Origin: a virus
Lineage: Duplodnaviria > Heunggongvirae > Uroviricota > Caudoviricetes
Length of the DNA stretch: 17,267 nucleotides
Virus record (IMG/VR): IMGVR_UViG_2565956714_000008
Coordinates: 1-17,267 of that record
Strand: one strand, 5' to 3'
The notes beneath the pieces were generated by a model. That model worked only from the letters and a program-made list of their open reading frames with translations. It searched no databases and had not been told where the DNA came from. The position numbers were made by a program, and so were the translations under genes. The stretch's first letter is position 1, and each line of letters begins with the position of its first letter. Of the stretch, positions 379 through 17,267 are shown piece after piece.

Positions 379-393
379 GTTGGAGTCATTACC
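1..393 (+). mobile_element. IS1 insertion sequence, 3'-terminal 393 bp (rest of element lies upstream of window start)
   Basis: 1-378 translates to the C-terminal part of IS1 InsB; 371-393 (atcaataagttggagtcattacc) is the IS1 terminal inverted repeat. Recognised from memory of IS1. Confidence 0.9.
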
Positions 394-3356: not shown

Positions 3357-3455
3357 ACAGACATTTGGCGGCGTTTCTAAAATAACACTACGCGTACTAC
3401 TTGGCTTAAGTAAACCAACATGAAAATCACTTTTTCTTATATTATCGAAAAGGTT

Positions 3456-3938
3456 CTATTCATTTCTTTTAGCGCATTCAAAAAACTGATCGGCATTATT
3501 TTTATTCGATAATTTTTTAGTTTCAGAAAACACATTTTCATTGTTTTCCAGCTTTAGTTTAATGAGAAGATTTTCCCAGACCTGCTTGCTTAAACATATT
3601 ACGTCAGGCTCACCAGAACTAACTAACTCGTGATTATTATTAAAGTGTACGTTGAATACCTTTAAGTTATTTTCACCAACTTCATATTTAATACGTTTTA
3701 ATTGTTCTCCAGCTCCCATAATGACAAAGGCGTTGCCTTCTTGATATATACATTCAGACATCATTTTTTGTAAAGTTTCAAGAGCACCGCGATACGTCTC
3801 TGATGCAGCTTCCTTACAAATTAATTTTAAAATACTATGAGCTAGTAGCTCCATGTGTTTAGAAGATTTATTTTCATTATAACTTCCACTACCCAAAACT
3901 GCGCTAGCGTTAAATCCGTTGCTTTTACTAACTAACAT
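3456..3938 (-). CDS. Hypothetical protein, 160 aa, AT-rich
   Basis: Minus-strand ORF with GAGGA 7 nt upstream of ATG 3938; same strand as and 100 bp upstream of the 263-aa ORF (likely co-transcribed). No recognisable domain. Position corresponds to ypjC in K-12 gene order. Confidence 0.55.
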   Translation of the reverse strand: MLVSKSNGFNASAVLGSGSYNENKSSKHMELLAHSILKLICKEAASETYRGALETLQKMMSECIYQEGNAFVIMGAGEQLKRIKYEVGENNLKVFNVHFNNNHELVSSGEPDVICLSKQVWENLLIKLKLENNENVFSETKKLSNKNNADQFFECAKRNE

Positions 3939-4688
3939 TGTCTATTCCTCAATTAATGTCTACATGGCTATTTTTAATGTTATTACTGTTTGTCACTATA
4001 AAAAAACGCTCATTTGAGACAATTACTGACATTAACTGCTTCACTTGCTACGCATGGAACTTTTAATTAAATTAGCACAGGAATGTTAAATTTAATAAAC
4101 AAAAGGTTATTTCGCTGTATGATAAAAAAAACCGTTATAATTTATTAGTGAAAATCGTTTTTCAAGTGTTAGAAATTTATATCTCAATAGCGTTGGTTAA
4201 TGAGCATAGCCACGCTCCTGTAACGCTCACAAAACTCATCTGCCTGCGGCGGGTGTTCTGGTCAGTAGTAGATGTTTAAGGCGTGGCAGAGACATTTCAT
4301 CCTTACTCTACGGCATTGTTCTACATACATTGGTTGTGGTACTCACTTATCATCAGTGAGCGAACAGAGAATAGTTCAGTGATTTGAGTAATTAACCTGA
4401 TTAAATGAAGGGGTATAATAAATGATAATACTCTGGCTTTATCGTTAATTACTTAATTCCACATGTAAGCAATTTGCCCGCTTGGCATAGCAGGCATTTT
4501 TTCCAGGTACTTTTGAATGAGTACTGATGGATAAATACATTGCAGTGGCGTGCCACGTACCAAAACACCAGCCCTCATTCGAAACCACCCACCGCACTTC
4601 TTCCTTGAAATGGCGTTAGTCATGAAATATAGACCGCCATCGAGTACCCCTTGTACCCTTAACTCTTCCTGATACGTAAATAATGATT

Positions 4689-4733
4689 TGGTGGCCCTTG
4701 CTGGACTTGAACCAGCGACCAAGCGATTATGAG
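4689..4733 (-). repeat. att core copy: 45-nt duplicate of the tRNA-Ile2 3' end (acceptor/T-arm to anticodon loop), marking the left boundary of the integrated element
   Basis: tggtggcccttgctggacttgaaccagcgaccaagcgattatgag matches 15430-15474 at 44 of 45 positions (single C/T difference); the sequence diverges immediately after, and the region upstream in tRNA orientation is not tRNA-like. Confidence 0.85.
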
Positions 4734-4842
4734 TTGGTTGATAACCCTTTACTTACAGATACTTAGCGATACTTTTCAATACCTTAGCATTTTTTAAAAC
4801 TACTGTATAAATACCTGTATATACCCCAAAATACTTCTTTAC

Positions 4843-4890
4843 GGTATCCTATAGGTATCCTGGAGCAGAACAAGCGATTTTCCAGGATAC
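4843..4890. promoter_or_regulatory. Putative integrase arm-type binding sites (GGTATCCT direct repeats plus inverted copy)
   Basis: ggtatcctataggtatcctgg at 4843-4863 and inverted copy tccaggatac at 4881-4890; a near-identical block ggtatcctataagtatcctgg occurs at 15367-15387 beside the other att core. Function inferred. Confidence 0.4.
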
Positions 4891-4914
4891 CAGATCGCTT
4901 GGTGGGGTGTATGA

Positions 4915-6336
4915 GTGAAATTATTCAGATTCTCTAAAGTAAAAATTGCAGAACTGCCAACGCCGGAACATGGACAGGTCGAATATGGTGATACGGAGGT
5001 TAACGGGCTGCGTGTCCGTGTAGGTTCGTCTGGTGTGAAAAGTTTCTGCATTTCCCGTAAGCGTAACGGAAAATTTATTCGTGCAACGCTGGGGCGTTTT
5101 CCTGATCTGAGCGTGGATAATGCCAGGGCTAAAGCTATGGAACTCCTTGGCGAAGTCGCCACAACGGGGATAAATCCGAACATAGCAAAGCGCACTAACA
5201 ACAAGGCCATGATAACGCTGAGTGAGGCGATTGACGCCTACGTAAAAAATCGTGGCCACCGCCTGAAACCCTCCACAGAAAAACAGTACCGCAGCATATT
5301 ACAGAATTATTCCGGTGACTGGATGGCCCATACCCTCGCCAGTATTTCCCGCGAACGGGTGGAACAACGGCATAAGGCCATCACTGATGGGGCTGTATGG
5401 TTCGGTGCTGATAAAACCACGTTACGGGCTGGGGTTGGTACAGGAAGCAAGGCACAGGCCGATTTATGGGCGCGTGCGCTACGTGCTGTGTGTCGGTTTG
5501 CGCATGATCATTACCGTGATGATGCGGGTAATACTCTTTTACCGGATCCGCCGACTCTGGTACTGAGCACCAAGCGCCAGTGGCACGGAACGGTAAGAAA
5601 AACGGAACGTATCCGCCTGCATGATTTTCCCCGCTGGTTTGCTGCTGTAGCTGCTGTGCGCGACCAGGGCGAACAGGAAAGGGATGATATAGCTGTTACG
5701 GTATGTGATGCCGTGGAAATGGCACTGTTTACCGGACTGAGGAAATCAGAAGTTTTTGGCCTTACGTGGGATCGCGTGAATATGGGCGGTCGCTTTTTCT
5801 GGATAGACACCACGAAAAACGGGGATCCGCTTGAACTGCCGATCACTGATACGTTGCGGAAAATGTTTCTTCGCAGGCTAAAAAACAAAGCTGCTGATGA
5901 TGTGCTGGTGTTTCCTGGCGTGAAGGGAGTGATTCAGGAGACACGGCACATCATAGACCGGATAAGCGCGGCTACCATTCCTGAGGCGAACGATGAAATG
6001 CTCTTCCCTGTCCCGTTTAAGTGGCACGACGCACGCCGGACGTTCGGAACGGTTGCTGAGCTGGTGGGCGTGGGTAATTACATCCTCAAGCGCCTGATGA
6101 ATCACCGCACTATGCGAAGTGCCGACGTAACGCAGGGGTATTTACATTTCGGTGCTGATGAACTGCTGGAGCCAGCATCACGGATAGAACGGGCAATTCT
6201 GGAACATGCCGGGCTGGTGGAGAGTAAAAAATCTATCGATGCGCAATTACTTTCCGCACTGGAGGGCATGAGTGATGATGAAAAACGTCGTTTACTATTT
6301 GCTATAGTACAAGAAAAGAATGACATATATGGGTGA
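4915..6336 (+). CDS. int: Tyrosine recombinase / integrase, P4-like with N-terminal arm-binding domain
   Basis: 473-aa ORF starting GTG 4915. The N-terminus (LPTPEHGQVEYGDTEVNGLRVRVGSSGVKSFCISRKRNGKFIRATLGRFPDLSVDNARAKAMELLGEV) fits the arm-binding domain pattern of P4-family integrases; C-terminal region has catalytic-domain signatures (LFTGLRKSEV, HDARRTFGT, TQGYLHF). Lies 180 bp inside the att repeat. Confidence 0.9.
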   Translation: MKLFRFSKVKIAELPTPEHGQVEYGDTEVNGLRVRVGSSGVKSFCISRKRNGKFIRATLGRFPDLSVDNARAKAMELLGEVATTGINPNIAKRTNNKAMITLSEAIDAYVKNRGHRLKPSTEKQYRSILQNYSGDWMAHTLASISRERVEQRHKAITDGAVWFGADKTTLRAGVGTGSKAQADLWARALRAVCRFAHDHYRDDAGNTLLPDPPTLVLSTKRQWHGTVRKTERIRLHDFPRWFAAVAAVRDQGEQERDDIAVTVCDAVEMALFTGLRKSEVFGLTWDRVNMGGRFFWIDTTKNGDPLELPITDTLRKMFLRRLKNKAADDVLVFPGVKGVIQETRHIIDRISAATIPEANDEMLFPVPFKWHDARRTFGTVAELVGVGNYILKRLMNHRTMRSADVTQGYLHFGADELLEPASRIERAILEHAGLVESKKSIDAQLLSALEGMSDDEKRRLLFAIVQEKNDIYG

Positions 6337-7045
6337 TAACAATATATCGGTCAAACAATATATTATTTATTCGGTTATGAATGATTTAATTACTGGTGGG
6401 CGAGACTCTTCAGTTTTAAACGTTCCTGTATCTTTATCCCCGAAAAACTCCACCATAGAGGCTATAAAACGCTTGATTGATGATATAAGAGATTATTTTT
6501 ATAAATCAAAGTATCCAACAAGAGAATTTCTTTTGTGTTATGGTTTAGAATTAAGAGAAATCGAGCAATATCCTATTGAATTAGCTATAAGAATGGATTC
6601 ATGTGGTTTTTTAATATTTGATAGTAAACTATCTTGTCAGGTTGTCGATACTTTAAATTCAGCAGTTGCATTGTACCATGTCGGAATGCGTAATCACGCA
6701 GACAAACTTACTAGGGTTGGTGTTGAGTTATTGCTTAATGACTTTTTTGAAGAAATTATATCGAACCATGAAAAAGATAAAAAAATAAAAGATGCTTTAT
6801 CCTTATCACAGAAAGAAAAAGCGCGCAAACCAAGAAATCATTATTACAATGAAGTTATGCACGTAATTAAACTAACATGGGAAAAGTACCCTAAAGCCAG
6901 TAAAACAGGTTTATTGAACGAGCTTTCTGTTTACTATCATGGGAAAGTAAGTAAAAACACTCTGGATAAATGGATTAAAGAATCAGGAGCACAACCACCA
7001 AGACCTGATAAATATTCTTCGTTTGAACTTGTTCACCCCCAATAG
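6320..7045 (+). CDS. Hypothetical protein, 241 aa, markedly AT-rich cargo gene; possible HTH near C-terminus
   Basis: ORF overlaps the integrase stop by 17 nt (ATG 6320; alternative ATG 6329). Base composition is visibly more AT-rich than the flanking integrase and regulator genes. No recognisable catalytic motif; C-terminal KASKTGLLNELSVYYHGKVSKNTLDKWIKE looks HTH-like. Confidence 0.55.
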   Translation: MTYMGDNNISVKQYIIYSVMNDLITGGRDSSVLNVPVSLSPKNSTIEAIKRLIDDIRDYFYKSKYPTREFLLCYGLELREIEQYPIELAIRMDSCGFLIFDSKLSCQVVDTLNSAVALYHVGMRNHADKLTRVGVELLLNDFFEEIISNHEKDKKIKDALSLSQKEKARKPRNHYYNEVMHVIKLTWEKYPKASKTGLLNELSVYYHGKVSKNTLDKWIKESGAQPPRPDKYSSFELVHPQ

Positions 7046-7073
7046 CTGGCTAGTGTATCTTAATAGCTGGCTA
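7041..7073. repeat. Two direct repeats aatagctggcta spaced 21 bp, upstream of the Xis/AlpA-like gene
   Basis: aatagctggcta at 7041-7052 and 7062-7073; a partial third copy (ctggctatt) near 7110. Possible regulator binding sites. Confidence 0.3.
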
Positions 7074-7150
7074 TTAAGGCTAAATAACTGGTAACCTCCC
7101 CACAGCAACTGGCTATTGGGCTAAAAACAAAATACCCATTGATTGATATT

Positions 7151-7184
7151 TATCACCGTTGTTACTTAGAAGTACACGGTGATA
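7151..7184. promoter_or_regulatory. Inverted repeat TATCACCGT-N16-ACGGTGATA overlapping the ribosome-binding region of the downstream HTH gene; candidate operator
   Basis: Perfect 9-bp arms at 7151-7159 and 7176-7184. The half-site TATCACCG resembles lambda-type operator half-sites, although the spacing differs from lambda operators. Confidence 0.4.
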
Positions 7185-7187
7185 GAT

Positions 7188-7397
7188 ATGAATTTAAAGA
7201 AATCTGATTTATCAACTGACCGCCTTACACGTGCTGAAGCTGCTGCCTACCTTGGCGTTAACAATCAAACGCTGGCGAACTGGGCCTGTACTGGCAAGGT
7301 AAAAATCCCTTTCCATAAGCTGGGGCGCAAAGTGCTGTATATGCGCACTGATCTCGATGCTTATCTTGCATCCACTCGCAGAACGCAGACGGTGTAA
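7188..7397 (+). CDS. Xis/AlpA-superfamily helix-turn-helix DNA-binding protein (excisionase-like or induction regulator)
   Basis: 69 aa from ATG 7188 (track start GTG 7179). LTRAEAAAYLGVNNQTLANWACTGKVKIPFHKLGRKVLYMRTDLDAYL fits the excisionase-family HTH pattern (L..EAA.YLGVS..TL..W...G.IP..K.GR...Y...DLDAYL). Confidence 0.75.
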   Translation: MNLKKSDLSTDRLTRAEAAAYLGVNNQTLANWACTGKVKIPFHKLGRKVLYMRTDLDAYLASTRRTQTV

Positions 7398-7744
7398 GGG
7401 GGAGTGATGGCACATAAAACAAAGGCGACCGCAGAGGGCCGCCAGTGGCATAACACTAAACTTGAGCATATCCAGAATACCAGGTTGTTGGCTGGTGGGC
7501 AATGCTATCAGTCTGGCTCGATTCGCTGCCATGCCTGCAATGAGCGTATTTTCCTAGAATACTCTTTAAGGTACTTCTCAAGGATAAACGCACATGGTGC
7601 GAATCTCTCCGGTTCATGTTCGTTTACCGCATTTTTGCGTTGTTTTTTCTTGGATGAGGATAATTTCTTTAATGATTTGTCAGTCATCGTAGATACCTGT
7701 AACCCTGTGCGCCACAGTTCACCGCACCACGGCGCTGGTGATGG

Positions 7745-7870
7745 TTACTCCTGCTCTTTGGCCTTGCGCCGCTGGCGGCGTTTGATCTCATCAAGGATTT
7801 TTCTTGGTAAGAAGCCTGCTGGTTTATTCTCTGGTAGAGAAAGTTTGTTATCGGTCTGCTTTTCAGTCAT
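7745..7870 (-). CDS. Small basic protein, 41 aa, translationally coupled to the upstream RHH gene
   Basis: ATG at 7870 lies 3 nt after the RHH stop codon (ATGtaTGA arrangement); encodes MTEKQTDNKLSLPENKPAGFLPRKILDEIKRRQRRKAKEQE. Below the ORF-track length cut-off; a weak call. Confidence 0.25.
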   Translation of the reverse strand: MTEKQTDNKLSLPENKPAGFLPRKILDEIKRRQRRKAKEQE

Positions 7871-7873
7871 ACA

Positions 7874-8065
7874 TCAGCCTTTAGGTTCAATGCCGCGTCG
7901 CTTTAGTTCGGCACGAGCTAATTCTTTAAACCAATTGCCGAGGGTTAGGCCATCGGCGGTTGCTGCCTCGTTTACTTGCTGGCGTAGTTCTTTGCTAATT
8001 CGTATCTGGAATGTCGGCGACCATCCCTCGCCGCGTGGTGATTTATCCCGCTTTAATGTTGACAT
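7874..8065 (-). CDS. Ribbon-helix-helix (Arc/CopG-like) DNA-binding protein, candidate repressor
   Basis: 63 aa; ...FQIRISKELRQQVNEAATADGLTLGNWFKELARAEL has the beta-strand/helix/helix layout of RHH proteins. Its start codon is embedded in a perfect palindromic operator (8064-8109). Confidence 0.6.
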   Translation of the reverse strand: MSTLKRDKSPRGEGWSPTFQIRISKELRQQVNEAATADGLTLGNWFKELARAELKRRGIEPKG

Positions 8066-8109
8066 GTACGTACGTAACTCCTATTATCATCAATATTACG
8101 TACGTACAT
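8064..8109. promoter_or_regulatory. Palindromic operator: two copies of the self-complementary 10-mer TACGTACGTA within perfect 14-bp inverted arms, in the divergent promoter region
   Basis: atgtacgtacgtaa (8064-8077) and ttacgtacgtacat (8096-8109) are exact reverse complements, separated by 18 bp that include the RHH gene's AGGAG ribosome-binding site. Confidence 0.55.
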
Positions 8110-8133
8110 TAACAGTAAGTGCAACAAAAAACA

Positions 8134-8168
8134 AAGCCCCGCAAGTGTCGTTACCACTCGCAGGGCTT
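8134..8168 (-). terminator. Hairpin with 12 of 14 paired bases, followed by a U-run on the minus strand only
   Basis: aagccccgcaagtg / cactcgcagggctt with loop tcgttac; A-tract 8121-8133 gives UGUUUUUUGUU after the hairpin on the minus strand. On the plus strand it would sit in the 5' UTR of the replication operon. Function uncertain. Confidence 0.3.
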
Positions 8169-8204
8169 CTAACCACCAACGATAACGAGAGTATCGAGGT
8201 AGCT

Positions 8205-8408
8205 ATGAGAAATCATACCATACACCCGCAAGGGCGGGATTCGCACAACCTGAATAAATTCGCCTGGCGTTTTATCGCCCTGAGCGCCGCAAAACCGCGT
8301 GTGATTACCATCGTGGCCACCAGCGAACAGGAAGCACGCCAGCACTCCCCGGCTGGCTGCGTGATGGTATTCGCCGCCCGTATTCGTCAGGGGGTGTGCC
8401 ATGCCTGA
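8205..8408 (+). CDS. Hypothetical protein, 67 aa, first gene of the plus-strand operon leading to the replication gene
   Basis: ATG 8205 with GAGGT 5 nt upstream; codon usage on this strand is typical of E. coli coding DNA (ctg, gcc, acc, atc, cgt, ccg), unlike the overlapping antisense ORFs; stop overlaps the next start (8401). Confidence 0.45.
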   Translation: MRNHTIHPQGRDSHNLNKFAWRFIALSAAKPRVITIVATSEQEARQHSPAGCVMVFAARIRQGVCHA

Positions 8409-8721
8409 TATGTCAAATTACCAGTACCTGATTAATCCGCATTTTAACTGTGAGCATGATATTGCTAAAAAGGTTTATTCCGCTGCGGATGGGGCGACTG
8501 ACAATATATCAATGGCCGTTGCGTCAATTGGTAGCCTGATGTGGCATGCGTCAGAAAATGAGGACTATGACGAAAAGGCCATGCGCATTGATATGGGTAA
8601 TATCGGTTTGTTACTGGCAATGCTTGGACATTTTGATATTTCGTTACGGTGCACCATTGAAAATGCCACAGATGCATTAAATGCCATAAAGAAAGCGAAT
8701 ACTGATTCAAATCGGGGATAA
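8401..8721 (+). CDS. Hypothetical protein, 106 aa
   Basis: ATG 8401 with GGGGG 6 nt upstream; overlaps the preceding stop; no recognisable domain. Confidence 0.5.
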   Translation: MPDMSNYQYLINPHFNCEHDIAKKVYSAADGATDNISMAVASIGSLMWHASENEDYDEKAMRIDMGNIGLLLAMLGHFDISLRCTIENATDALNAIKKANTDSNRG

Positions 8722-8727
8722 ATAATC

Positions 8728-9027
8728 ATGAGAACGTATTTATCTGGCTTGACTGCCAGCGGTTATGCACATCCCAAAATTATCCCCGGCGCTATTTATC
8801 TGGATAAGAACGGTAACAGAGTAACGGTAAAAGAACTGATGTTTGACCGTGTGTATTTTATTCGTGATGGCTATTCATTTCATAGTTCGCTGAACGTGGA
8901 GATCTTTATTAGCAGATTCAGGCGGGAAATCCCGCTTTCCAGAAATAACCATGTGTCACGTGTGAATGTGGATAAAAAACTACAGGAACTGAAAAACATG
9001 ATTGCCGCGTGGAGAGAGCAGAAATGA
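8728..9027 (+). CDS. Hypothetical protein, 99 aa
   Basis: ATG 8728 (GGGGA 9 nt upstream); its stop overlaps the replication-gene start (ATGA at 9024-9027), indicating translational coupling. Confidence 0.5.
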   Translation: MRTYLSGLTASGYAHPKIIPGAIYLDKNGNRVTVKELMFDRVYFIRDGYSFHSSLNVEIFISRFRREIPLSRNNHVSRVNVDKKLQELKNMIAAWREQK

Positions 9028-10841
9028 AAAAAGCGCCAAATTTAAAACACCAGTCGCGTGACAAAATGACGGAAGTCATCATTTTTGCGGGTAGTGATGC
9101 GTGGGCACATGCGAAGCAGTGGCAGGAACAGGACGGGCGACTGGCTGGCGATAACGTGCCTCCTGTCTGGCTTGGAGAGCAACAACTTGCCGAACTGGAC
9201 AACCTGCAAATCGTACCGGACGGACGCTATCGCGTGCGTCTCTATCAGGCGGGGTTATTGCGTCCGGGGCTTGTTAATACCATCGGGCAGAAACTGGCAG
9301 CGGCAGGTGTCAGGGATGCTGATTATTATCCTGAAGGAATGCACAGCCAGAAACGGGAGAACTGGCGCGAATATCTGGAACGTGAACGGGCAGAGCAGGC
9401 GGAAAAGAAAAAGGTAGTTGAACTGCCTGTAAAGAAAAAAGAGCGGGTAAAAGACGATAACGCTTCATCACTGGCGCTTAACCAGATGGGAGCAAGTCAA
9501 CGCGGCGAAGTTCTCCTGGCACATTATGGCGGTGAATTGGCGATTCATGCTGACTCTGACACTGTTCACCATTACAACGGCGTTGTATGGGAGCCAGTAC
9601 AGGATAAAGAATTACAGCGAGCTATGGCACAGATTTTCATTGATGCGGAGATCAGCTATTCGCAGAACGCCATTAAATCGGCGGTCGATACCATGAAGTT
9701 AAGTTTGCCTGTAATGGGGAATACAGCCCGTAACCTGATTGGATTCAGTAACGGGGTATTTGATACCAGAACAGGTAATTTTCGGGGGCATAACAAAAAC
9801 GACTGGTTGTTAATTGCCAGTGAATTACCTTTCAGCCCACCAGCAGAGGGGGAAACACTGGCAACACATGCGCCGAATTTCTGGAAGTGGTTACGCCGTT
9901 CGGTGGCTGAGAATGACCGCAAGGCAGATCGCGTACTGGCGGCATTATTCATGGTGCTGGCGAACCGGTACGACTGGCAGTTATTCATTGAGGTAACAGG
10001 GCCGGGGGGAAGTGGTAAAAGCGTGATGGCGGAGATTTGCACCATGCTGGCGGGTAAGGCTAATACAGTATCAGCAAGCATGAAGGCGCTGGAAGATGCA
10101 AGGGAACGTGCGTTAGTGGTTGGCTTTTCGCTGATTATCATGCCGGATATGACCCGCTACGCTGGTGATGGGGCAGGGATTAAGGCCATTACAGGCGGTG
10201 ACAAGGTGGCAATTGACCCGAAACACAAAGCCCCCTACTCAACGCGTATTCCGGCAGTAGTGCTGGCGGTTAACAATAACGCCATGTCATTCAGTGACCG
10301 CAGCGGGGGGATCTCACGTCGTCGGGTGATATTCAATTTTTCGGAAGTTGTACCGGAGAACGAACGCGATCCGATGCTGGCGGAAAAAATAGAAGGTGAG
10401 CTGGCGGTAGTGATTCGCCATCTGCTTACACGGTTTGCTGACCAGGACGAAGCCAGACGCCTGTTATATGAGCAGCAGAAATCTGAAGAAGCACTGGCGA
10501 TAAAGCGAGAGGGGGATTCGCTGGTGGACTTCTGCGGCTATCTCATGGCGTCGGTAATGTGTGATGGCCTGTTAGTGGGTAATGCTGAAATTGTGCCATT
10601 CAGCCCGCGCAGGTATCTCTATCATGCCTATCTGGCTTATATGAGGGCTCATGGGTTTGGTAAACCTGTAACACTGACGCGCTTCGGTAAAGATATGCCT
10701 GGGGCAATGGCGGAATATGGCAGGGAGTATATAAAACGGAAAACGAAGCACGGTTTACGTTCAAACGTGACACTGACGGAGGAATCAGAAGACTGGATGC
10801 CATCATGTGTATCAGTCACTAATGACGATAGCAAAAATTAA
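9024..10841 (+). CDS. Replication initiator: primase/SF3-helicase-like P-loop NTPase (Pri-Rep type)
   Basis: 605 aa from ATG 9024 (GGAGAGAG 5 nt upstream; track start GTG 9009). Walker A VTGPGGSGKSVMAEIC and a downstream hydrophobic-acidic segment (LIIMPDM) as candidate Walker B, in the C-terminal half; immediately followed by an iteron cluster as in PICI/SaPI and P4-type replication modules. The N-terminal half has no motif I can assign. Confidence 0.8.
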   Translation: MKKAPNLKHQSRDKMTEVIIFAGSDAWAHAKQWQEQDGRLAGDNVPPVWLGEQQLAELDNLQIVPDGRYRVRLYQAGLLRPGLVNTIGQKLAAAGVRDADYYPEGMHSQKRENWREYLERERAEQAEKKKVVELPVKKKERVKDDNASSLALNQMGASQRGEVLLAHYGGELAIHADSDTVHHYNGVVWEPVQDKELQRAMAQIFIDAEISYSQNAIKSAVDTMKLSLPVMGNTARNLIGFSNGVFDTRTGNFRGHNKNDWLLIASELPFSPPAEGETLATHAPNFWKWLRRSVAENDRKADRVLAALFMVLANRYDWQLFIEVTGPGGSGKSVMAEICTMLAGKANTVSASMKALEDARERALVVGFSLIIMPDMTRYAGDGAGIKAITGGDKVAIDPKHKAPYSTRIPAVVLAVNNNAMSFSDRSGGISRRRVIFNFSEVVPENERDPMLAEKIEGELAVVIRHLLTRFADQDEARRLLYEQQKSEEALAIKREGDSLVDFCGYLMASVMCDGLLVGNAEIVPFSPRRYLYHAYLAYMRAHGFGKPVTLTRFGKDMPGAMAEYGREYIKRKTKHGLRSNVTLTEESEDWMPSCVSVTNDDSKN

Positions 10842-10853
10842 ACTTATGGAATA

Positions 10854-11085
10854 ACTGTTCACCACTGTTCACCCTGTCATAAATATCTTTTATATCAGTA
10901 TATTATAGGGTGAACAGTTATTTATGAACTATTCACCAAACTATTCACTGTTCACCTTTTTGGTTGTTTATTGAGCTTCAAGGGTGAACAGTGGTGAACA
11001 GTTGGTGAATAGTTTTTGTAAAACTGTTCACCCCTTAACAGTATGAATTTAAATGGAAAATATCAAAAGGTGAACAGGTGAAGGG
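10854..11085. repeat. Iteron-type replication origin: about 11 copies of ACTGTTCACC / GGTGAACAGT in both orientations within AT-rich spacers
   Basis: tgttcacc at 10856-10863, 10866-10873, 10949-10956, 11025-11032; variant tattcacc at 10930-10937; inverted ggtgaaca at 10909-10916, 10983-10990, 10993-11000, 11069-11076; variants ggtgaata at 11004-11011 and ggtgaagg at 11078-11085. Several copies are tandem with ~10-bp period. Confidence 0.7.
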
Positions 11086-11128
11086 TTAAAATACAAAAAT
11101 TTTAATTTATTGCTCTGAGATAAAGCCT

Positions 11129-11374
11129 ATGACAGCGAAGCGCACAAAAAAAACACAATCGCACGCCCTTGATTTGACGGAACACTGGTTAAGGGGGTCG
11201 ATAAAAATCATCGACCGCAACGCCGGGGAAGGATACGCGAAAGCACATCCCGAACTGATAAGCGCATTCATGACCACGGCGGCGGCAAATTTTGCCACGC
11301 TAACAGAGCGGGAGATTGCCGAAGCGGAACAGGTAACAACCATCAACGTTAAAACCGGAGAGCAGACAGCATGA
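11129..11374 (+). CDS. Hypothetical protein, 81 aa
   Basis: ATG 11129 with only a weak ribosome-binding site; stop overlaps the SSB start (ATGA at 11371-11374). No recognisable domain. Confidence 0.45.
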   Translation: MTAKRTKKTQSHALDLTEHWLRGSIKIIDRNAGEGYAKAHPELISAFMTTAAANFATLTEREIAEAEQVTTINVKTGEQTA

Positions 11375-11793
11375 CAGCACAGATAGCGGCTTACGGACGG
11401 CTGGTGGCTGACCCGCAGTTAAAGACCACTAGCAAGGGTACACAAATGACGATGGCTAGTATGGCGGTCCCCCTTCCGTGCAGCCAGGCAGATGACGGAA
11501 CGGCGACGATGTGGTTATCCGTCCTGGCGTTTGGCAGACAGGCCGACGCACTGGCAAAACACCACAAAGGCGAACTGGTGAGCGTGGCGGGTAACATGCA
11601 GGTAAGCCAGTGGACAGGCCAGAACGGCGAAACGCGGCAGGGCTGGCAGGTTATCGCAGACAGTGTAATCAGTGCCAGAACGGCGCGACCGGGCGGCAAA
11701 AAAGGTCAACAGGGCCAGGCTACTGACGCACTGAACAGGGCAAAACAACAGTCGGGGAATGATGATCCGTACGGCGATAATATACCGTTTTAA
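11371..11793 (+). CDS. ssb: Single-stranded DNA-binding protein (SSB) with acidic C-terminal tip
   Basis: 140 aa; OB-fold region WLSVLAFGRQADALAKHHKGELVSVAGNMQVSQWTGQNGETRQGWQVIAD parallels E. coli SSB ([51 protein letters not shown]); Gly/Gln-rich linker and C-terminal DDPYGDNIPF resembling the SSB tail DDDIPF. Confidence 0.8.
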   Translation: MTAQIAAYGRLVADPQLKTTSKGTQMTMASMAVPLPCSQADDGTATMWLSVLAFGRQADALAKHHKGELVSVAGNMQVSQWTGQNGETRQGWQVIADSVISARTARPGGKKGQQGQATDALNRAKQQSGNDDPYGDNIPF

Positions 11794-11803
11794 ATTCTGC
11801 AAA

Positions 11804-11839
11804 TAAAAAAATGCCGGAAGAAAATAGATTTTCCGGCAT
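11804..11839 (-). terminator. Stable hairpin (9-bp stem ATGCCGGAA/TTCCGGCAT) between ssb and the capsid gene, forming a canonical intrinsic terminator only in the minus orientation
   Basis: Stem 11811-11819 and 11831-11839, loop 11 nt; A-run 11804-11810 gives a U-run after the hairpin on the minus strand; no U-run follows it on the plus strand. Confidence 0.35.
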
Positions 11840-12010
11840 GCTACATAAATCCCGACCAAAGGAAGTAAATACATTAACACGAATTATCAGCACTGAAGTT
11901 GTCACGGCAGATTTTATACAACATTGCACTTGGTTGCATGTATTCGCATAGCAAATATCGGTGATAGCATATATCCACAATTATTTTTAATGAATGCAAA
12001 GAGGATGCGT

Positions 12011-13051
12011 ATGGTTGATTTATATTCGCCTGCCCAGCTTGTGCAGGTGGCTAATGCTGAAGATGTGCAAAAAAAATTAAATGTGTTGTTTACCAGTTTG
12101 TTTTTCACTCGCTCGGTAATGTTTGAATCGAGAGACATTATTCTTGATACGATCGACGATCCAAATATCCCGATCGCGGCGTTTTGCTCTCCTATGGTGG
12201 GCAGTAAAGTTTCACGAGATGAGGGATACGAATCAAAAACAATTCGCCCTGGCTATATGAAACCGAAAAGCAGCATTGATCCAAATAAGTTAGCTGTGCG
12301 CCCTGCTGGTGTGTCACCTGAGCAATACAATGCTTTTGGGGCGCGTAATATTAAAGTTAAACAGGCGATTGTAAATCAGGCTAAAGCTATTCGTACACGT
12401 ATTGAATGGCTTGCTGTTCAGGCAATCACAACGGGGAAAAATATCATTGAGGGCGATGGTATTGAACGTTATGAGCTGGACTGGAATATAAAACCACAAA
12501 ATATCATCACTCAGTCTGGCGGTACTGAGTGGTCAGGTAAGGATAAAGAAACTTTTGATCCAAATGATGATATTGAGAGCTACGCAGAATTTAGTGAGGG
12601 CGTCACTAATATCATCATTATGGGCGGTAATGTATGGAAGAAATACCGTTCATTCAGAGCGATAAAAGAGGCTCTGGATACCCGTCGTGGTTCTAATTCC
12701 GAACTGGAAACGGCCCTTAAAGACCTTGGTGATTCGGTGAGTTTTAAAGGGTATATGGGCGATGTTGCGATTGTTGTTTACAGCGGGCGTTATACCGACG
12801 AGGACGGAACTGAAAAATATTTCCTTGATCCTGATTTGATGGTGCTTGGCAATACGGCTCTCCAGGGGATTGTCGCTTATGGCGGTATTCAGGATCCGGA
12901 GCTAATCCGGATGGGGCTGACTAAAGCCGAACTTGCACCGAAAAACTATATTGTGCCTGGTGATCCGGCTATTGAATATGTGCAGACACATTCAGCACCA
13001 CAGCCAATACCGGCCCGTATCAATCGTTTTGTTACCGTTCGCATTGGCTAA
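12011..13051 (+). CDS. Major capsid protein, lambda gpE family
   Basis: 346 aa from ATG 12011 (AAAGAGGA, 5-nt spacer; track start 11924 is upstream in frame). Long colinear matches to lambda gpE as I recall it: ITQSGGTEWSGKDKETFDPNDDIESY vs ITQSGGTEWSKRDKSTYDPTDDIEAY; DTRRGSNSELETALKDLG vs DTRRGSNSELETAVKDLG; GDVAIVVYSGRY vs GDVAIVVYSGQY; MVLGNT in both. Confidence 0.9.
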   Translation: MVDLYSPAQLVQVANAEDVQKKLNVLFTSLFFTRSVMFESRDIILDTIDDPNIPIAAFCSPMVGSKVSRDEGYESKTIRPGYMKPKSSIDPNKLAVRPAGVSPEQYNAFGARNIKVKQAIVNQAKAIRTRIEWLAVQAITTGKNIIEGDGIERYELDWNIKPQNIITQSGGTEWSGKDKETFDPNDDIESYAEFSEGVTNIIIMGGNVWKKYRSFRAIKEALDTRRGSNSELETALKDLGDSVSFKGYMGDVAIVVYSGRYTDEDGTEKYFLDPDLMVLGNTALQGIVAYGGIQDPELIRMGLTKAELAPKNYIVPGDPAIEYVQTHSAPQPIPARINRFVTVRIG

Positions 13052-13061
13052 GGGGGGAGCA

Positions 13062-13403
13062 ATGGCTACTCATTACACTGAACTCATGGCTGGCACTGAA
13101 GCACTGGTTACTACGCTGGGGATATTTTCAGCTAATAAAGGGGTAATTCCTGCATTTACGCCACTGATGCAGGAAGATACAACAGGTGCACTGGTGGTAT
13201 GGGATGGTACGAGTGCAGGTAAAGCTGTTTATGTTTCCGCTGTACAACTCGATACAGCGAAAAAAACACAGGCTCAGGTCTATAAGACAGGTGTCTTAAA
13301 TGTTGATGCTCTTAACTGGCCTGAGTCAGTAAAAGAACTGTCAGTAAAGGTTGCAGCGTTTGTTGGCTCAGGTATTTCTGTTCAGCCGCTGGCTCGTGTG
13401 TAA
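13062..13403 (+). CDS. Head decoration protein, lambda gpD family
   Basis: 113 aa from ATG 13062 (GGGGGGAG upstream). IPAFTPLMQEDTTGALVVWDGTSAGKAV...KTGVLNVDALNWPE...AAFVGSGISV parallels lambda gpD [28 protein letters not shown]...KSGTFRYEDVLWPE...TAFAGTAISIV. Confidence 0.85.
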   Translation: MATHYTELMAGTEALVTTLGIFSANKGVIPAFTPLMQEDTTGALVVWDGTSAGKAVYVSAVQLDTAKKTQAQVYKTGVLNVDALNWPESVKELSVKVAAFVGSGISVQPLARV

Positions 13404-13414
13404 AGGGGGATACA

Positions 13415-13798
13415 ATGCAGAATCATTACAATGACCTTAAGCCAATTGCCGAAATGATGTATCCGGATCCAGCAGTAGAGGAATTAAAGGCTATTGCTGA
13501 CAAAATGCGTTTAAGCGAGCGTCTTGTTGATATGAATCAGGTGATGGAACTTACAACCCTGAGTCGTCGTACACTGCTAAACCTTGAAGCACGTGGAGAG
13601 TTCCCCGAACGCGTGCAGGTTACGGAAGGGCGTAAGGCCTGGTATTTAAGCGAAGTGATCGACTGGATAAACAATATTCCGCGCGCTTCTGAATATTGCC
13701 GCGTACCTGTCCCAAAAAAGCCAGATGCGGCGCTATGCCTCAAGATTGATCGTGTACGCCGCAATGCACGGGATGGTCGCTATAAGCTGATTGGTTGA
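13415..13798 (+). CDS. AlpA-family HTH protein with ~40-aa N-terminal extension, immediately upstream of cos
   Basis: 127 aa, ATG 13415 with GGGGGA 5 nt upstream. MELTTLSRRTLLNLEARGEFPERVQVTEGRKAWYLSEVIDWINN fits the AlpA pattern (T.LSR.T...L...G.FP.PV.LG.R...W...EV..WI). Confidence 0.7.
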   Translation: MQNHYNDLKPIAEMMYPDPAVEELKAIADKMRLSERLVDMNQVMELTTLSRRTLLNLEARGEFPERVQVTEGRKAWYLSEVIDWINNIPRASEYCRVPVPKKPDAALCLKIDRVRRNARDGRYKLIG

Positions 13799-13822
13799 TG
13801 AAATTAGGGCCCGTTCTGGCTG

Positions 13823-14020
13823 GCGGGTCCTTTCCGGCGATCCGGTAGGCTACGGGGCGTCAGGCGCGCGGGTTTTCGCTTTTTATGAAAATTTTCCGGT
13901 TTAAGGCGTTTCCGTTCTTCTTCGCCGTAACTTTATGTTTTTATTTGAAACACCCCCTGAAAAGAAAGGAAACGACAGGTGCTGAAAACGGGCTTTTTGG
14001 CCTCTGTCGTTTCCTTTCTC
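13823..14020 (+). other. Lambda-type cos site: cosQ-like segment, cosN-equivalent 12-mer (13855-13866, divergent) and cosB with R3, I1, R2 and R1 elements
   Basis: From 13867 onward the sequence (cgcgggttttcgctttttatgaaaattttccggtttaaggcgtttccgttcttcttcg ... ctgaaaagaaaggaaacgacaggtgctgaaaacgggctttttggcctctgtcgtttcctttctc) is nearly identical to my recollection of lambda left-end bases 13-170, including R3 cgtttccgttct (13907-13918), R2 agaaaggaaacg (13963-13974) and R1 cgtttcctttct (14008-14019). Upstream gcgggtcctttccggcgatccggtaggctacg parallels the lambda right end ACGGGTCCTTTCCGGTGATCCGACAGGTTACG. The 12-mer is GGGCGTCAGGCG here versus GGGCGGCGACCT in lambda. Confidence 0.8.
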
Positions 14021-14339
14021 GTTTTTGAGCAAAACTGGCTCTATACATGCTTAGAAATGCTAGGGTTTTTGCGTAATACAGGTAGTGCAGGAGATTCACC
14101 AGGGGATTATTCATATATGCTGGTAGGCGCTATGTGTTAGTGGTGAGCGAAAAACAATCAAAACCGACACCGTAAAAATAAAAATCACAAATTATCAATT
14201 AGTTGTGCCAGTGGTGATGGCGAATGAAATTTCAAAAACTAGCCTTTTTCCGCGATGCTTTCGCCCCGTGGCAGGCCACCCCACCAGGAGGACCCGCTAC
14301 AATTACGGTATCAACCTCATCACTATGGAGGCCATGACC

Positions 14340-14624
14340 ATGACCGAGACCGAAGCGCTCGAAATAATCCGCAGTATTACCGGAATCAGCCAGGCAACAG
14401 GCAAACAGGAGGCCACGCAGCCGGACAGCGTCACCGCTGAAAATTACGCGCGTGTGGTGGCTGAGGTGATGCGCCGTGACGGTATTGAGCTTAACGGCGT
14501 GGATATGCGCAACATACGAACCAGAGTCCTTGAGTTGCTGGCATACCGTCGCCGTTCTCAACAACGGAGGGAGAGCGCGAAAAATACTTACCAGTGGAAG
14601 AAGCCGGAACGACTGCGGTGGTAA
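14340..14624 (+). CDS. Hypothetical protein, 95 aa, in the position lambda Nu1 occupies relative to cosB but unrelated to Nu1
   Basis: Best-supported start ATG 14340 (GGAGG with 8-nt spacer); in-frame alternatives at 14205 (GTG), 14217, 14325 and 14334. Arg-rich C-terminus; no recognisable domain. Confidence 0.45.
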   Translation: MTETEALEIIRSITGISQATGKQEATQPDSVTAENYARVVAEVMRRDGIELNGVDMRNIRTRVLELLAYRRRSQQRRESAKNTYQWKKPERLRW

Positions 14625-14642
14625 CTTGCTGATATTCCCGAT

Positions 14643-14890
14643 AACGCAAAATTGCGTTGGCTGGTGGGTGAGTTGCAGATCTGCAACTCGACCATGAAAC
14701 TACGGAAACTACCCGTAGTTTGGGTAGTAAGAGTAACACCCAGATTTTGGGGCTTACTCGCGATACCCAAATAAAGGGTATCGGTGGAAGAAATATCGTT
14801 TCTCATATGTGAGTACCGAGGGCGGAATTCCGCCTTCGGTTACTTATTGTGCTCATGCACAGGGAGAGGCGGGTACAAATCTCTGTACCC
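14643..14890. repeat. Cluster of six inverted repeats/palindromes in a ~250-bp non-coding stretch
   Basis: AACGCAA-aa-TTGCGTT (14643-14658); perfect 20-bp palindrome GAGTTGCAGATCTGCAACTC (14670-14689); AAACTACGG/CCGTAGTTT (14697-14721) overlapping ACTACCC/GGGTAGT (14708-14728); GATACCC/GGGTATC (14762-14782); GGCGGAATTCCGCC (14821-14834); GGGTACA/TGTACCC (14871-14890). Confidence 0.45.
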
Positions 14891-15033
14891 TGACGTCTTC
14901 CGGACTGCCAGCCCCATCGTTTTTTTACGCCCGCGAAAAATAAAAATTGTTTGTATGTGAGTATTGTAGCCAGCAAAAGCTCTTTCTTTAGTGGCTTATT
15001 GTTTCTAATAGATTTTGGGAGGTAGAAATGGGA

Positions 15034-15053
15034 GGCCCAGCGAAAGCTGGGCC
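15034..15053 (-). terminator. GC hairpin with GAAA tetraloop (GGCCCAGC-gaaa-GCTGGGCC) just downstream of the small minus-strand ORF
   Basis: 8-bp perfect stem; on the minus strand it follows the stop at 15072 and is followed by a C/U-rich tract (UCCCAUUUCU), so not a textbook U-run. Confidence 0.3.
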
Positions 15054-15071
15054 GAGCTTGTTACGCTGTCA

Positions 15072-15215
15072 TTACTTCAGCATGATAACTAAAGCTATAC
15101 ATACTAGCACTACGGCTATTGGGCATAGACCTAAATTGCCAAGTGCTGCGATTAAACCTGTAACGGCAATCACACGTGCAGACAGCAGGTCTGAGCCCTT
15201 TCTTAAAGTATCCAT
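15072..15215 (-). CDS. Small hydrophobic protein, 47 aa, with a predicted C-terminal transmembrane helix
   Basis: ATG at 15215 preceded by GGAGG with 5-nt spacer; encodes MDTLRKGSDLLSARVIAVTGLIAALGNLGLCPIAVVLVCIALVIMLK. Below the ORF-track length cut-off. It is antisense to the 100-aa plus-strand ORF 15028-15330, which also has a strong ribosome-binding site, so the call is uncertain. Confidence 0.35.
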   Translation of the reverse strand: MDTLRKGSDLLSARVIAVTGLIAALGNLGLCPIAVVLVCIALVIMLK

Positions 15216-15366
15216 TGATACCTCCGTCAGGGTTTTTGCCGGTCTCTTGGAGAGTTGGGGGCAAAAGTTCAGACCCGTAGCACTTTCTTGTTCGCAGGTG
15301 AACGGCTGCTACGACCCAACTGTTCTGTAGGCATGAGCCAATTCTTACTTGTTAATACTTCTCAGA

Positions 15367-15387
15367 GGTATCCTATAAGTATCCTGG
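15367..15387. promoter_or_regulatory. Putative integrase arm-type sites (second copy of the GGTATCCT repeat block)
   Basis: ggtatcctataagtatcctgg, 43 bp from the tRNA/att core; near-identical to 4843-4863 at the other end of the element. Confidence 0.4.
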
Positions 15388-15429
15388 TAAAGCAAGATAG
15401 TTTGGATACATCTGTAATTCATTGAAATC

Positions 15430-15505
15430 TGGTGGCCCCTGCTGGACTTGAACCAGCGACCAAGCGATTATGAGTCGCCTGCTCTAACCACTGAGCTAAA
15501 GGGCC
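15430..15505 (-). tRNA. ileY: tRNA-Ile2 (anticodon CAU, lysidine-type; anticodon-only tools would call tRNA-Met)
   Basis: Reverse complement of 15430-15505 is a 76-nt tRNA: GGCCCTTTAGCTCAGTGGTTAGAGCAGGCGACTCATAATCGCTTGGTCGCTGGTTCAAGTCCAGCAGGGGCCACCA, with 7-bp acceptor stem (one G-U pair), anticodon loop CUCAUAA and encoded CCA. It matches my memory of E. coli ileX/ileY and differs from elongator and initiator tRNA-Met. ileY chosen from the flanking gene order. Confidence 0.9.
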
Positions 15506-16064
15506 TTGAGTGTGCAATAACAATACTTATAAACCACGCAATAAACATGATGATCATATGATGTAAATAACAGATTTTTATGCGTTCCCATTCACCTTGG
15601 GTCGTGATTACACGCGACATAAAACCCGACACCGCCTCCATTCGCAAAGTCGATACTCGCAGTCAACAAGCAAATGTTAATAATTAGCACTATCTATAGT
15701 TATCATCGATTCAATGATACTTTGTAATGATTTTGTATCTAATAATATAACTTTATTACATTAGCTGAAGAGTTTTCGCATCATTATGATATCTGTTACT
15801 TTTCACTCCATAAAAATAAACTTCGTATAGCAATATATTCTTTCATAGATCTTATTCTGCTAATCATTAGTTTCGTATGAGCGATTTTTGACAGTTGCCT
15901 CTCCAGACCACATCGATAATTAATAAAACAGATTTAAGCATTATCCTTTTCCATATAAATATTGGATAAAAGTAGGACATCTGTTTGCAATTACTTTCAC
16001 AACAATTAAACATTTTTATGTTTCCGTATACATCATATTACTCTACCATTAGAGGAACTTTATT

Positions 16065-17267
16065 ATGTTTTCTATAAAACCAGGACCCAGAAATTTACCT
16101 ATCGACAACCCCACATTGTTATCATGGAACATTACTGACGGGGATCTAAATTCCAAATTAAATACATTAGAATATCTAAACTGTATAACAAATATTATTA
16201 ATTCTTGTGGAGTTTACCCTCAAGGATTAAAAGACAGAGAAATTATATCAACTTTTCACGCAGAAAAAGTTATTAATGATCTGTTAAAAAACGATTATAA
16301 AATTTCCCTTTCTCCAGATACAACTTACCGAGAGTTGAATAAAGCAGCACAGCGTAGCATTACAGCGCCAGACAGGATAGGAGAAAGAAAAACATAGGTT
16401 TATCAACGAGATACAATGATTGAAAGAGGTGATAACAGCGGTGTTTATCAGTATGGTCGTGCTGAACATTTCACCCACATTATATCTGACAAACCTTCCC
16501 CAAAAGATAAATATGTTGCATATGCTATTAACATTCCTGACTATGAGCTGGCAGCCGATGTATATAATATTAACGTGACGTCACCTTCCGGACAGCAAGA
16601 AACATTTAAAATATTAATCAATCCAGAACATCTACGGCAAACACTTGAGCGTAAATCTCTTACTGCTGTTCAGAAATCACAATGTGAAATCATCACCCCC
16701 AAAAAACCTGGCGAAGCGATTCTTCATGCTTTTAATGCCACCTACCAGCAGATCAGAGAAAATATGTCTGAATTTGCACGTTGCCATTATGGGTATATAC
16801 AAATCCCTCCAGTGACAACTTTCCGTGCCGACGGACCAGAAACTCCCGAAGAAGAAAAAGGTTACTGGTTTCACGCTTATCAACCCGAAGATCTTTGTAC
16901 CATCCACAATCCAATGGGAGATTTGCAGGATTTTATCGCATTGGTTAAAGATGCTAAAAAATTTGGTATCGATATCATTCCTGATTATACCTTTAACTTT
17001 ATGGGAATCGGGGGTAGTGGTAAAAATGACCTGGATTATCCCTCTGCTGATATACGAGCGAAGATCAGTAAAGATATAGAAAGTGGTATCCCTGGCTATT
17101 GGCAAGGTCAGGTTTTGATTCCATTTACTATAGATCCAGTAACAAAAGAACGTAAACAAATCCATCCAGAAGATATACATCTCACTGCAAAAGACTTCGA
17201 AGCAAGTAAAGATAATATTTCTAAGGATGAATGGGAAAACCTCCATGCATTAAAAGAAATCGTTTAA
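16065..17267 (+). pseudogene. ygaQ: Alpha-amylase family (GH13-like) gene interrupted by a single in-frame amber codon
   Basis: ORFs 16065-16397 and 16416-17267 are in the same frame, separated only by TAG at 16395-16397 plus six sense codons. The downstream part carries amylase-like motifs (GYIQIPPVTT..., GYWFHAYQPEDLCTIHNPMGDLQDFIALVKDAKKFGIDIIPDYTFNFMG, compare G.TA.Q.SP..., W.RYQP..Y.L.TR.G..DEF..MV..C...GV.IYVD.V.NHM). Symbol from locus memory (ygaQ is next to ileY in K-12 and annotated as a pseudogene); amylase assignment is motif-level only. The gene ends exactly at the window end. Confidence 0.5.

Follow-up and report, generated by a model that had tools for sequence, protein, structure and literature searches.

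We analyzed a stretch of 17,267 nucleotides from the IMG/VR record IMGVR_UViG_2565956714_000008 (Caudoviricetes; positions 1 to 17,267), hereafter the window, to whose positions all coordinates refer. It contains a 10.8-kb phage-inducible chromosomal island (PICI) of the Gram-negative EcCICFT073 family, integrated in a tRNA-Ile2 gene, in which the packaging site, cos, is bracketed by two small genes. One of these codes for a protein of the AlpA family (AlpA2) and the other for an arginine-rich protein of 94 residues (p94). An earlier note on this DNA, made from the letters alone, had recognized a satellite island with a lambda-type cos, rightly so in light of the gene map, the att repeats and the cos elements. 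It had further proposed that the two genes either steer the terminase of a helper phage to the island cos or act in late control. Both open reading frames (ORFs) and the cos proved to be real and located where the note had placed them, as attested by Shine–Dalgarno (SD) sequences, RefSeq coding sequences in a twin of the island and selection on the proteins.

Our central finding is that this cos is of the helper type in all its parts. The explanation that we favor, and hold with moderate confidence as a whole, is that the island would use the helper cos directly, with AlpA2 as a regulator of the late module and p94 as a non-essential accessory. Under this proposal, the helper's own Nu1 and gpA would bind and cut the island cos, with neither terS, the gene for the small terminase subunit (TerS), nor rpp being needed. 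AlpA2, the product of the last cistron of the capsid operon, would bind a triplicated TTGCAY element and regulate the late module. p94 would normally trail the packaging-specificity gene of an island, be it terS, rppA or terL (the gene for the large terminase subunit, TerL); here this gene would have been swapped for a helper-type cosB, with p94 staying in place. AlpA2 and p94 are mutually unrelated accessory genes.

A complete helper-type cos without a terminase gene

The cos comprises cosQ (GGGTCCT, 13825-13831), the 12-nt cohesive end GGGCGTCAGGCG (13855-13866) and the cosB repeats R3 (13907-13922), R2 (13962-13978) and R1 (14004-14019), with R2 and R1 forming the expected inverted repeat. 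All three repeats are exact matches to the cosB of lambda-type phages. The segment 13823-14027 as a whole shows up to 95% identity to deposited lambdoid phages (PhiR46_1/YDC107_1), in which it is trailed by Nu1 and gpA. Likewise, in a lambda-like prophage (locus L010) the cos is about 97% identical from cosQ through R1, shares the same 12-nt end, and is followed by Nu1, gpA and the portal gene. The homology to phages stops about 10 bp after R1, just short of the Nu1 ribosome-binding site. The island has this single cos, and codes for no terS, no rpp and no other terminase gene.

We strongly infer from these sequence matches that the helper's own Nu1 and gpA should bind and cut the island cos directly, without an adaptor. 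Since the island cosB is the helper's own, no factor redirecting the helper terminase is needed. This differs from EcCICFT073, in which cosQ and cosN are kept next to a foreign cosB (PMC6739421); that island needs Rpp to re-target the helper TerS because its cosB differs from that of the phage (PMC6739421). The setting in which a TerS–Rpp heterodimer is needed, namely an island cosB that differs from the helper's, is not encountered here, with R3, R2 and R1 being identical to the lambda-type repeats. Given the helper-type cos and a prophage with an identical cohesive end, we also infer that the window island would be induced by a helper and transferred at high frequency.

The cohesive end itself is variable across these elements: GGGCGTCAGGCG differs from the GGGCGGCGACCT of lambda at 5 of 12 positions and has an exact copy in L010 (1259-1288), while PhiR46_1 carries a third variant, GGGCGGAAGGCG.

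Exchange of packaging cassettes to the right of cosN

Our survey of viral and genome collections recovered about 90 AlpA2-bearing loci, 52 of which are non-redundant and have enough flanking sequence. The order gpD-like gene, AlpA2, a spacer of 24-50 bp and cosQ-cosN is constant in the approximately 90 loci, including those from Kosakonia, Kluyvera, Superficieibacter and Cedecea. The sequence on the right side of cosN is a mosaic. A different cosB combined with an island-encoded TerS of the Nu1 family (Pfam Phage_Nu1) is seen in 22 of the 52, with p94 as the next gene in 20 of those 22. Seven feature a lambda-type cosB and a lambda-like Nu1 without p94, 20 feature a full or partial lambda-type cosB with neither terS nor p94, and one, from Cedecea, has neither recognizable cosB type, no terS and no p94. 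The window and its twin from Escherichia coli KC-Dl-1 are the only two of the 52 loci, and of the 28 counted as having a lambda-type cosB, in which such a cosB occurs together with p94.

An alignment of the window with an F1053-type island loses identity within the cohesive end and regains it about 220 bp before p94, past the stop codon of the F1053 terS. The simplest reading is that a helper-type cosB took the place of a cosB–terS cassette in the lineage of the window, with p94 remaining where it was. The cosN looks like a recombination junction in this family.

Near-identical islands (as seen from the window and loci L002, L010, L061 and L065) swap their cassettes at or inside the 12-nt cohesive end, the exchanged segments being a lambda-type cosB alone, a lambda-type cosB with Nu1, or an own cosB with an own Nu1-family TerS and p94. 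As to insertion sites, 35 of the 52 loci (L057-L101) are inserted in a lambda-like capsid gene E, the C-terminal part of which resumes 1.3-3 kb after cos, and are the helper-embedded PICIs of PMC10111431.

AlpA2 and a candidate operator of the capsid operon

The AlpA2 gene has a strong SD sequence (AAGGGGGA) 6 nt before its ATG. Residues 36-85 of its product match the Pfam family Phage_AlpA (PF05930; E 1.4e-8, 34.9 bits against a cut-off of 21). The earlier note's observation of an AlpA-type protein with an extra N-terminal segment is thus borne out, with about 35 extra residues at this end, along with a conserved C-terminal tail of about 40 residues beyond the AlpA domain. The nearest solved relative in a search of PDB sequences is the AlpA-family protein 8c3t (E 1.6e-10). 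The family comprises 99 clusters at 90% identity, is found only in Enterobacteriaceae and is nearly always 127 residues long; its core is under purifying selection (pN 0.02-0.05 versus saturated pS).

AlpA2 is the last cistron of an operon with the genes for the major capsid protein (MCP) and the gpD-like head decoration protein. The start regions of the gpD-like gene (13050-13084) and AlpA2 (13403-13437) show 74% identity over 35 nt, covering the SD sequence and eight codons (MATHYTEL versus MQNHYNDL). AlpA2 does not occupy the position of an induction activator or excisionase next to int: it sits at the 3' end of the late operon, whereas the int-proximal slot is taken by a gene of the HTH_17/excisionase family. 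Taken together, the most likely role of AlpA2 is to regulate the late module by sequence-specific binding to DNA.

Several lines of evidence argue against AlpA2 being a terminase-specificity factor or an Rpp-like protein. Two AlpA2 alleles are common, that of the window and one 95% identical to it, and each is found with every cosB/TerS type; since a partner in specificity should co-vary with these, the absence of such co-variation counts against a specificity role. What AlpA2 does co-vary with is the capsid module; the alternative occupant of its slot, c1501 of EcCICFT073, travels with the other gpD allele. AlpA2 and c1501 show no sequence relation to each other. Rpp proteins are 144-153 residues long, with an N-terminal winged helix-turn-helix (wHTH; residues 1-64) and a C-terminal coiled-coil dimerizer, and neither AlpA2 nor p94 shows homology to them. 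A comparison of AlpA2 with all PDB chains, RppC included, recovered the AlpA protein only and no RppC, and an hhalign comparison of its profile with RppA gave a probability of 0.1%, i.e., no detectable relation. The AlphaFold2 (AF2) model of AlpA2 (mean predicted local distance difference test score, pLDDT, 58) was too poor for a structure search.

The stretch that separates AlpA2 from cosQ lacks conservation among genera, contains a terminator in Cedecea and shows no sign of a binding site; a candidate AlpA2 site beside cosQ was dropped on account of this lack of conservation. The Q-like antiterminator AlpA of Pseudomonas aeruginosa was also rejected as a relative, having a different architecture with a C-terminal HTH at about residues 128-142 and not being retrieved by the PDB sequence search. 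That protein has about eight helices and an N-terminal ring that enters the RNA exit channel; it shares its name with AlpA2 by coincidence and offers no precedent.

A better candidate site lies upstream of the capsid operon, in the form of three TTGCAY hexamers spaced 10 bp apart (11924-11949). They are followed, about 12 bp later, by a conserved GTGATAGCAT (11961-11970) that fits an extended -10 element. An alignment across genera places the element 40-85 bp before the start codon of MCP and shows its footprint to be conserved in islands of E. coli, Kosakonia, Kluyvera, Superficieibacter and Cedecea despite diverged flanks. It occurs once per AlpA2-type island, and is found in none of the c1501-type islands, capsid-forming PICIs (cf-PICIs) and phage segments examined. 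The geometry suggests a candidate activator-dependent promoter, with the hexamers overlapping the -35 region. The element is the best candidate for an AlpA2 operator, and a reasonable model would have AlpA2 auto-activating the capsid operon. A precedent for such a regulatory role is provided by the AlpA of EcCICFT073, which activates its own promoter (PMC6092414). Of the two ideas in the earlier note, late control by AlpA2 is the better one and is possible, given the place of AlpA2 at the end of the capsid operon and the candidate operator in front of that operon.

p94 and its association with packaging genes

The p94 gene has a GGAGG 8 nt upstream of its ATG. The earlier note was right about the richness in arginine (14 of 94 residues, about 15%), while its length of 95 residues has to be corrected to 94. 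p94 matches PHROG 1561, a family without an annotated function, from end to end (E 1.8e-49, positions 1-92 of 93). The family has 988 clusters at 90% identity and 37 representatives at 50% identity, is present in more than 1000 E. coli genomes, and evolves under purifying selection (dN/dS 0.2-0.5). An exhaustive HMMER search returned 37 matches among 1.84 billion representatives, all from the same narrow family. Orthologs are present in characterized islands, at 69% identity in EcCICFT073 (c1505) and at 71% in EcCIEDL933, where the ortholog is likewise the last gene. Among 50,697 deposited phage genomes, neither AlpA2 nor p94 is encoded, bar one weak partial match.

The placement of p94 immediately after cosB, in the slot of Nu1, does not hold up: its ATG lies 320 nt past the end of R1 (14019), an interval that is filled by terS in sister islands, and in its relatives p94 trails terS, rppA or terL. 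p94 also falls outside the Nu1 family (Pfam Phage_Nu1; N-terminal wHTH and C-terminal gpA-binding region), to which the true Nu1 homologs of the sister islands match with E-values of 1e-22 to 4e-84. We sampled a further 80 loci by searching with p94, and in all of them p94 closes the island as its final gene. It follows the island TerS, often at a distance of 15 nt, and in Superficieibacter a short form of 62 residues overlaps the terS stop codon. In loci arranged like EcCICFT073 it comes after RppA and an inverted cos2. In 33 of the 80 (within L102-L180), it overlaps the stop codon of a 553-residue TerL in an HNH-TerS-TerL set, which is the architecture of the cf-PICIs; this placement is confirmed in annotated genomes (L181 15737-16021; L183 18479-18760), including EcCIEDL933. 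The synteny thus supports a looser link between p94 and packaging genes.

Intact p94 genes are also seen downstream of decay remnants, either of a TerS/Rpp-like HTH gene or of the 3' end of rppA (L112 4880-4990; L164 4560-4690). In L064 (4920-5225), p94 is a pseudogene, truncated and with an in-frame stop codon, to which cosB is fused. A motif, TAACYNGYTGATATT, overlaps the p94 stop codon (14622-14636) and is single in the window; it is present three times after the CFT073 ortholog (L018 33652-33820) and seven times in EDL933 (L183 18758-19151). Integrase arm sites are one possible identity of these repeats, duplicated copies of the p94 3' end another.

The genetics of c1505 can be read from published work by mapping the primers onto the CFT073 genome, whereby plasmid pJP2220 is seen to carry exactly c1505. 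Expression of c1505 from pBAD18 gave no interference with lambda, and only c1503 (rppA) among the cloned genes cut lambda plaques (PMC6739421). Further, c1505 is absent from the c1504-07::cat island, the one taken as wild type when transfer was assayed in the work on Rpp (PMC6739421). As c1505 is silent on lambda and deleted from a transfer-proficient island, it is neither an interference factor on its own nor required for the transfer of EcCICFT073. A lack of effect on island transfer or helper interference is what the earlier note itself had named as a refutation of its idea, and for p94 the ortholog c1505 presents such a lack.

The AF2 model of p94 (pLDDT 75) has three helices; residues 29-83 form a helical hairpin predicted with confidence, and the tail is basic and disordered. 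Against the PDB and BFVD, the model gave no match with an E-value below 0.5. Searches with p94 of Pfam, NCBIfam and PADLOC found nothing and no HTH, and comparisons with RppA and all PDB chains found no relation. We propose, with low confidence, that p94 is a non-essential accessory partner of island-encoded packaging proteins; it probably has no necessary role at the cos of the window.

Alternative roles for AlpA2 and p94

Packaging redirection, whereby AlpA2 and/or p94 would bind the helper TerS/TerL or cos DNA and bias the terminase toward the island, like Rpp in EcCICFT073 or Ppi in the Staphylococcus aureus pathogenicity islands (SaPIs), appears to be a very improbable role. Both genes do flank cos, with AlpA2 immediately preceding cosQ in every locus, p94 shows synteny with terminase genes, and the wHTH of AlpA2 is of the same broad class as the DNA-binding domains of Nu1 and Rpp, although its hhalign match to Nu1 is confined to the HTH register and is not significant (E 0.037). 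Yet no new specificity is required where the cosB is the helper's, AlpA2 lacks sequence or profile similarity to RppA/RppC and has alleles that do not track the cosB/TerS type, and its spacer to cosQ is unconserved. As for p94, expression of c1505 by itself leaves lambda uninhibited, a derivative of EcCICFT073 without c1505 is still transfer-proficient, and 26 islands with the same lambda-type cosB lack p94. On these grounds, we set aside the steering of the helper terminase that the earlier note had envisaged. A distinctly unlikely role for AlpA2 is that of a recombination directionality factor (excisionase), acting on the island or, by cross-talk, on the helper prophage rather than on transcription. 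The AlpA/Xis family and PHROG 2790 are annotated as "excisionase and transcriptional regulator", a putative excisionase of a PICI aids excision of the helper rather than its own (PMC11773190), and two thirds of the AlpA2 loci are embedded in the helper gene E, where the timing of excision matters. Nevertheless, the island already has an HTH_17 excisionase-family protein next to int, from which AlpA2 is about 8.5 kb away at the far end of the late operon, and the same AlpA2 (94-100% identical) is shared by islands that differ in integrase and in att site (tRNA-Ile2 in some, capsid gene E in others), which would be unusual for such a factor.

p94 could instead be a genuine cofactor of packaging or establishment, for example, one aiding terminase assembly or protecting or circularizing the cos-ended DNA, and be functional rather than vestigial in the window; we regard this as doubtful, if still plausible. 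It accords with the purifying selection on a family of such breadth, with the translational coupling to terS or terL, and with the retention of intact p94 where Rpp or TerS has decayed. It would also fit a possible identity of p94 with "1792" of EcCIEDL933, the loss of which severely reduces transfer. Speaking against it are the dispensability of p94 for laboratory transfer of EcCICFT073, its absence from most islands with a helper-type cos, the pseudogene in L064 and the lack of a recognizable fold or family. An extended version of these ideas, which we consider unlikely, combines AlpA2 as a dedicated late activator acting via the TTGCAY element with p94 as a universal cofactor that lets the specificity proteins of PICIs (TerS, Rpp and the TerS/TerL of cf-PICIs) work with helper components. 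If true, it would amount to an undescribed regulatory and accessory layer of PICI packaging, missed since the deletion screens used one island and two helpers.

Certain observations weigh against direct use of the helper cos with AlpA2 as a late regulator and p94 as a dispensable accessory, the explanation that we favor. The pattern TTGC-N6-TTGC is that of the lambda CII box; the TTGCAY element fits it, and a helper protein may accordingly be the binder. The element also co-occurs with the capsid module as a whole, and so is not independent evidence for AlpA2. A role on the cosQ side of cos would still be one way to explain why AlpA2 and cosQ are always adjacent. With respect to p94, the hypothetical gene "1792" lies in the packaging module of EcCIEDL933; it could be either the p94 ortholog, in which case p94 would matter more than its apparent dispensability implies, or a 60-residue ORF between HNH and terS. 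The c1504-07 deletion also removes cos2, the loss of which raises transfer, and this could mask a mild defect from the loss of c1505. Finally, the structure models are uninformative, AlpA2 being poorly modeled and the p94 hairpin having no significant fold match.

Borders and gene content of the island

The gene map, the att repeats and the colinearity with EcCICFT073, which is found in the CFT073 genome, identify the element as a PICI (Table 1). It has the unidirectional series of int, regulator, primase-ori and late zone, all genes being oriented rightward, falls in the size range of 10-20 kb, and is flanked by att repeats at a site unused by prophages. Beyond the island, the window continues into ordinary E. 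coli chromosomal DNA, toward ypjA at one end and toward the alpha-amylase pseudogene at the other, and a scan of the window with Rfam found only the tRNA. An island in E. coli KC-Dl-1 is 99.9% identical over the region compared, and RefSeq annotates both small coding sequences there. The KC-Dl-1 island sits in ileX beside mug, and that of the window in the other tRNA-Ile2 copy (the ypjA/alpha-amylase pseudogene locus).

The 241-residue ORF had no match in Pfam, PHROGs, NCBIfam or PADLOC; it occupies the int-proximal slot, which is variable among PICIs according to the cf-PICI preprint (10.1101/2025.02.11.637232). The iterons after the primase gene have the form GGTGAACAG(T/G)T and occur in both orientations. 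They are probably the replication origin of the island, and their position agrees with that of the PICI ori after pri (PMC6092414).

Table 1. Features of the window, in order of position.
Feature	Position	Strand	Basis or remark
attL, 36-bp direct repeat of the 3' part of tRNA-Ile2	4699..4734		exact match to 15440-15475
Tyrosine integrase	4915..6336	+	Pfam Arm-DNA-bind_3 and Phage_integrase
Unclassified 241-aa ORF	6320-7045	+	overlaps the integrase stop codon; GC about 32%
HTH_17/excisionase-family protein, in the slot of the canonical alpA of other PICIs	7179..7397	+	Pfam HTH_17 E 1.4e-11; NCBIfam TIGR01764 excisionase domain
Icd-like region, then DUF4222 protein	between the HTH_17 gene and the primase	+	gene map
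Primase/helicase (D5_N, DUF5906, Pox_D5)	9009..10841	+	Pfam
Origin-like iterons GGTGAACAG, at least 10 copies	10850..11080		directly 3' of the primase gene
Small protein, then single-stranded DNA-binding protein (SSB)	between the iterons and the capsid operon	+	gene map
Candidate activator-dependent promoter of the capsid operon	11924..11970	+	conserved footprint; putative function
MCP homolog (lambda gpE family)	12011..13051	+	Pfam Phage_cap_E E 7.8e-41
Head decoration protein homolog (gpD-like, lambda gpD family)	13062..13403	+	Pfam HDPD E 1.9e-15
AlpA2, 127-aa AlpA-family wHTH protein, last gene of the capsid operon	13415..13798	+	Pfam AlpA match; family conservation
Complete lambda-type cos without Nu1	13823..14027	+	identity to phage and prophage cos
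Conserved leader upstream of p94, common to terS-bearing islands	14120..14339	+	F1053 alignment resumes after the terS stop of that island
p94 (phrog_1561), helical Arg-rich protein of 94 aa, last island gene	14340..14624	+	ORF, PHROG, synteny
tRNA-Ile2 (CAU anticodon), with attR (15440-15475) inside	15430..15505	-	RefSeq calls tRNA-Ile; Rfam

Comparison with known systems

The island is a member of a known family of Gram-negative PICIs and presents nothing categorically new, a placement that removes the need for a new hijacking factor. Both small genes belong to conserved, uncharacterized families that are specific to satellites. Of these, p94 is among the most widespread uncharacterized genes of PICIs and cf-PICIs and is consistently tied to island-encoded terminase genes, while the AlpA paralog of the late zone and the TTGCAY element offer a direct way to test how the capsid genes of satellites are turned on. 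The cassette swaps at cosN form a natural series for asking what each packaging strategy costs the helper.

EcCICFT073 has the same order of int, regulator, Icd-like region, DUF4222, primase, ori, SSB, MCP, gpD-like protein, small gene and cos, with the p94 ortholog c1505 (69% identical) before the att site, and its cosQ and cosN are lambda-like. It differs in having its own non-phage cosB, RppA to re-target the helper TerS and a second, inverted cos, as opposed to the helper cosB, lack of rpp and single cos of the window; its pre-cos slot holds the unrelated c1501 in place of AlpA2, and its integrase and att site are different. EcCICFT073 is packaged in phage-sized heads, with no size redirection being seen for the MCP/gpD homologs of E. 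coli. Deletion of c1499 or c1500 in that island has no phenotype (PMC6092414).

The canonical AlpA proteins of PICIs, along with CP4-57 AlpA and P4 Vis, belong to the same PF05930 as AlpA2, with the canonical AlpA of capE-type islands being about 38% identical to it over about 65 residues. However, they are only 62-73 residues long and encoded next to int, unlike the 127-residue AlpA2 with its N- and C-terminal additions at the end of the late operon, and the two coexist in many islands. The cf-PICIs, such as EcCIEDL933, share with the window a p94 homolog as the last gene, following terL (71% identity in EDL933). They differ in coding for a full HK97-type head and an HNH-TerS-TerL set, with small capsids of their own, whereas the window has only the MCP and gpD homologs and no terminase gene.

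As judged from the sequence, the packaging strategy, i.e., a copy of the helper cos with neither terS nor rpp, matches that of the 11capE PICI, a terS-less island with about 260 bp of helper cos (PMC10111431). 11capE and its relatives have the helper cos at the same position; most of the AlpA2 loci are of this kind and share the block of MCP, gpD-like protein, AlpA2 and cos. These islands differ in using the helper gene E as their site, in having the canonical AlpA next to int and in lacking p94, while the window island uses tRNA-Ile2 and another integrase, has the HTH_17 protein in the int-proximal slot and keeps p94. In principle, the strategy also matches that of the cos-type SaPIs: SaPIbov5 has no sequence relationship to the window island, but it likewise has a copy of the helper cos, needs no terS and codes for an MCP homolog, Ccm (as cited in PMC6092414).

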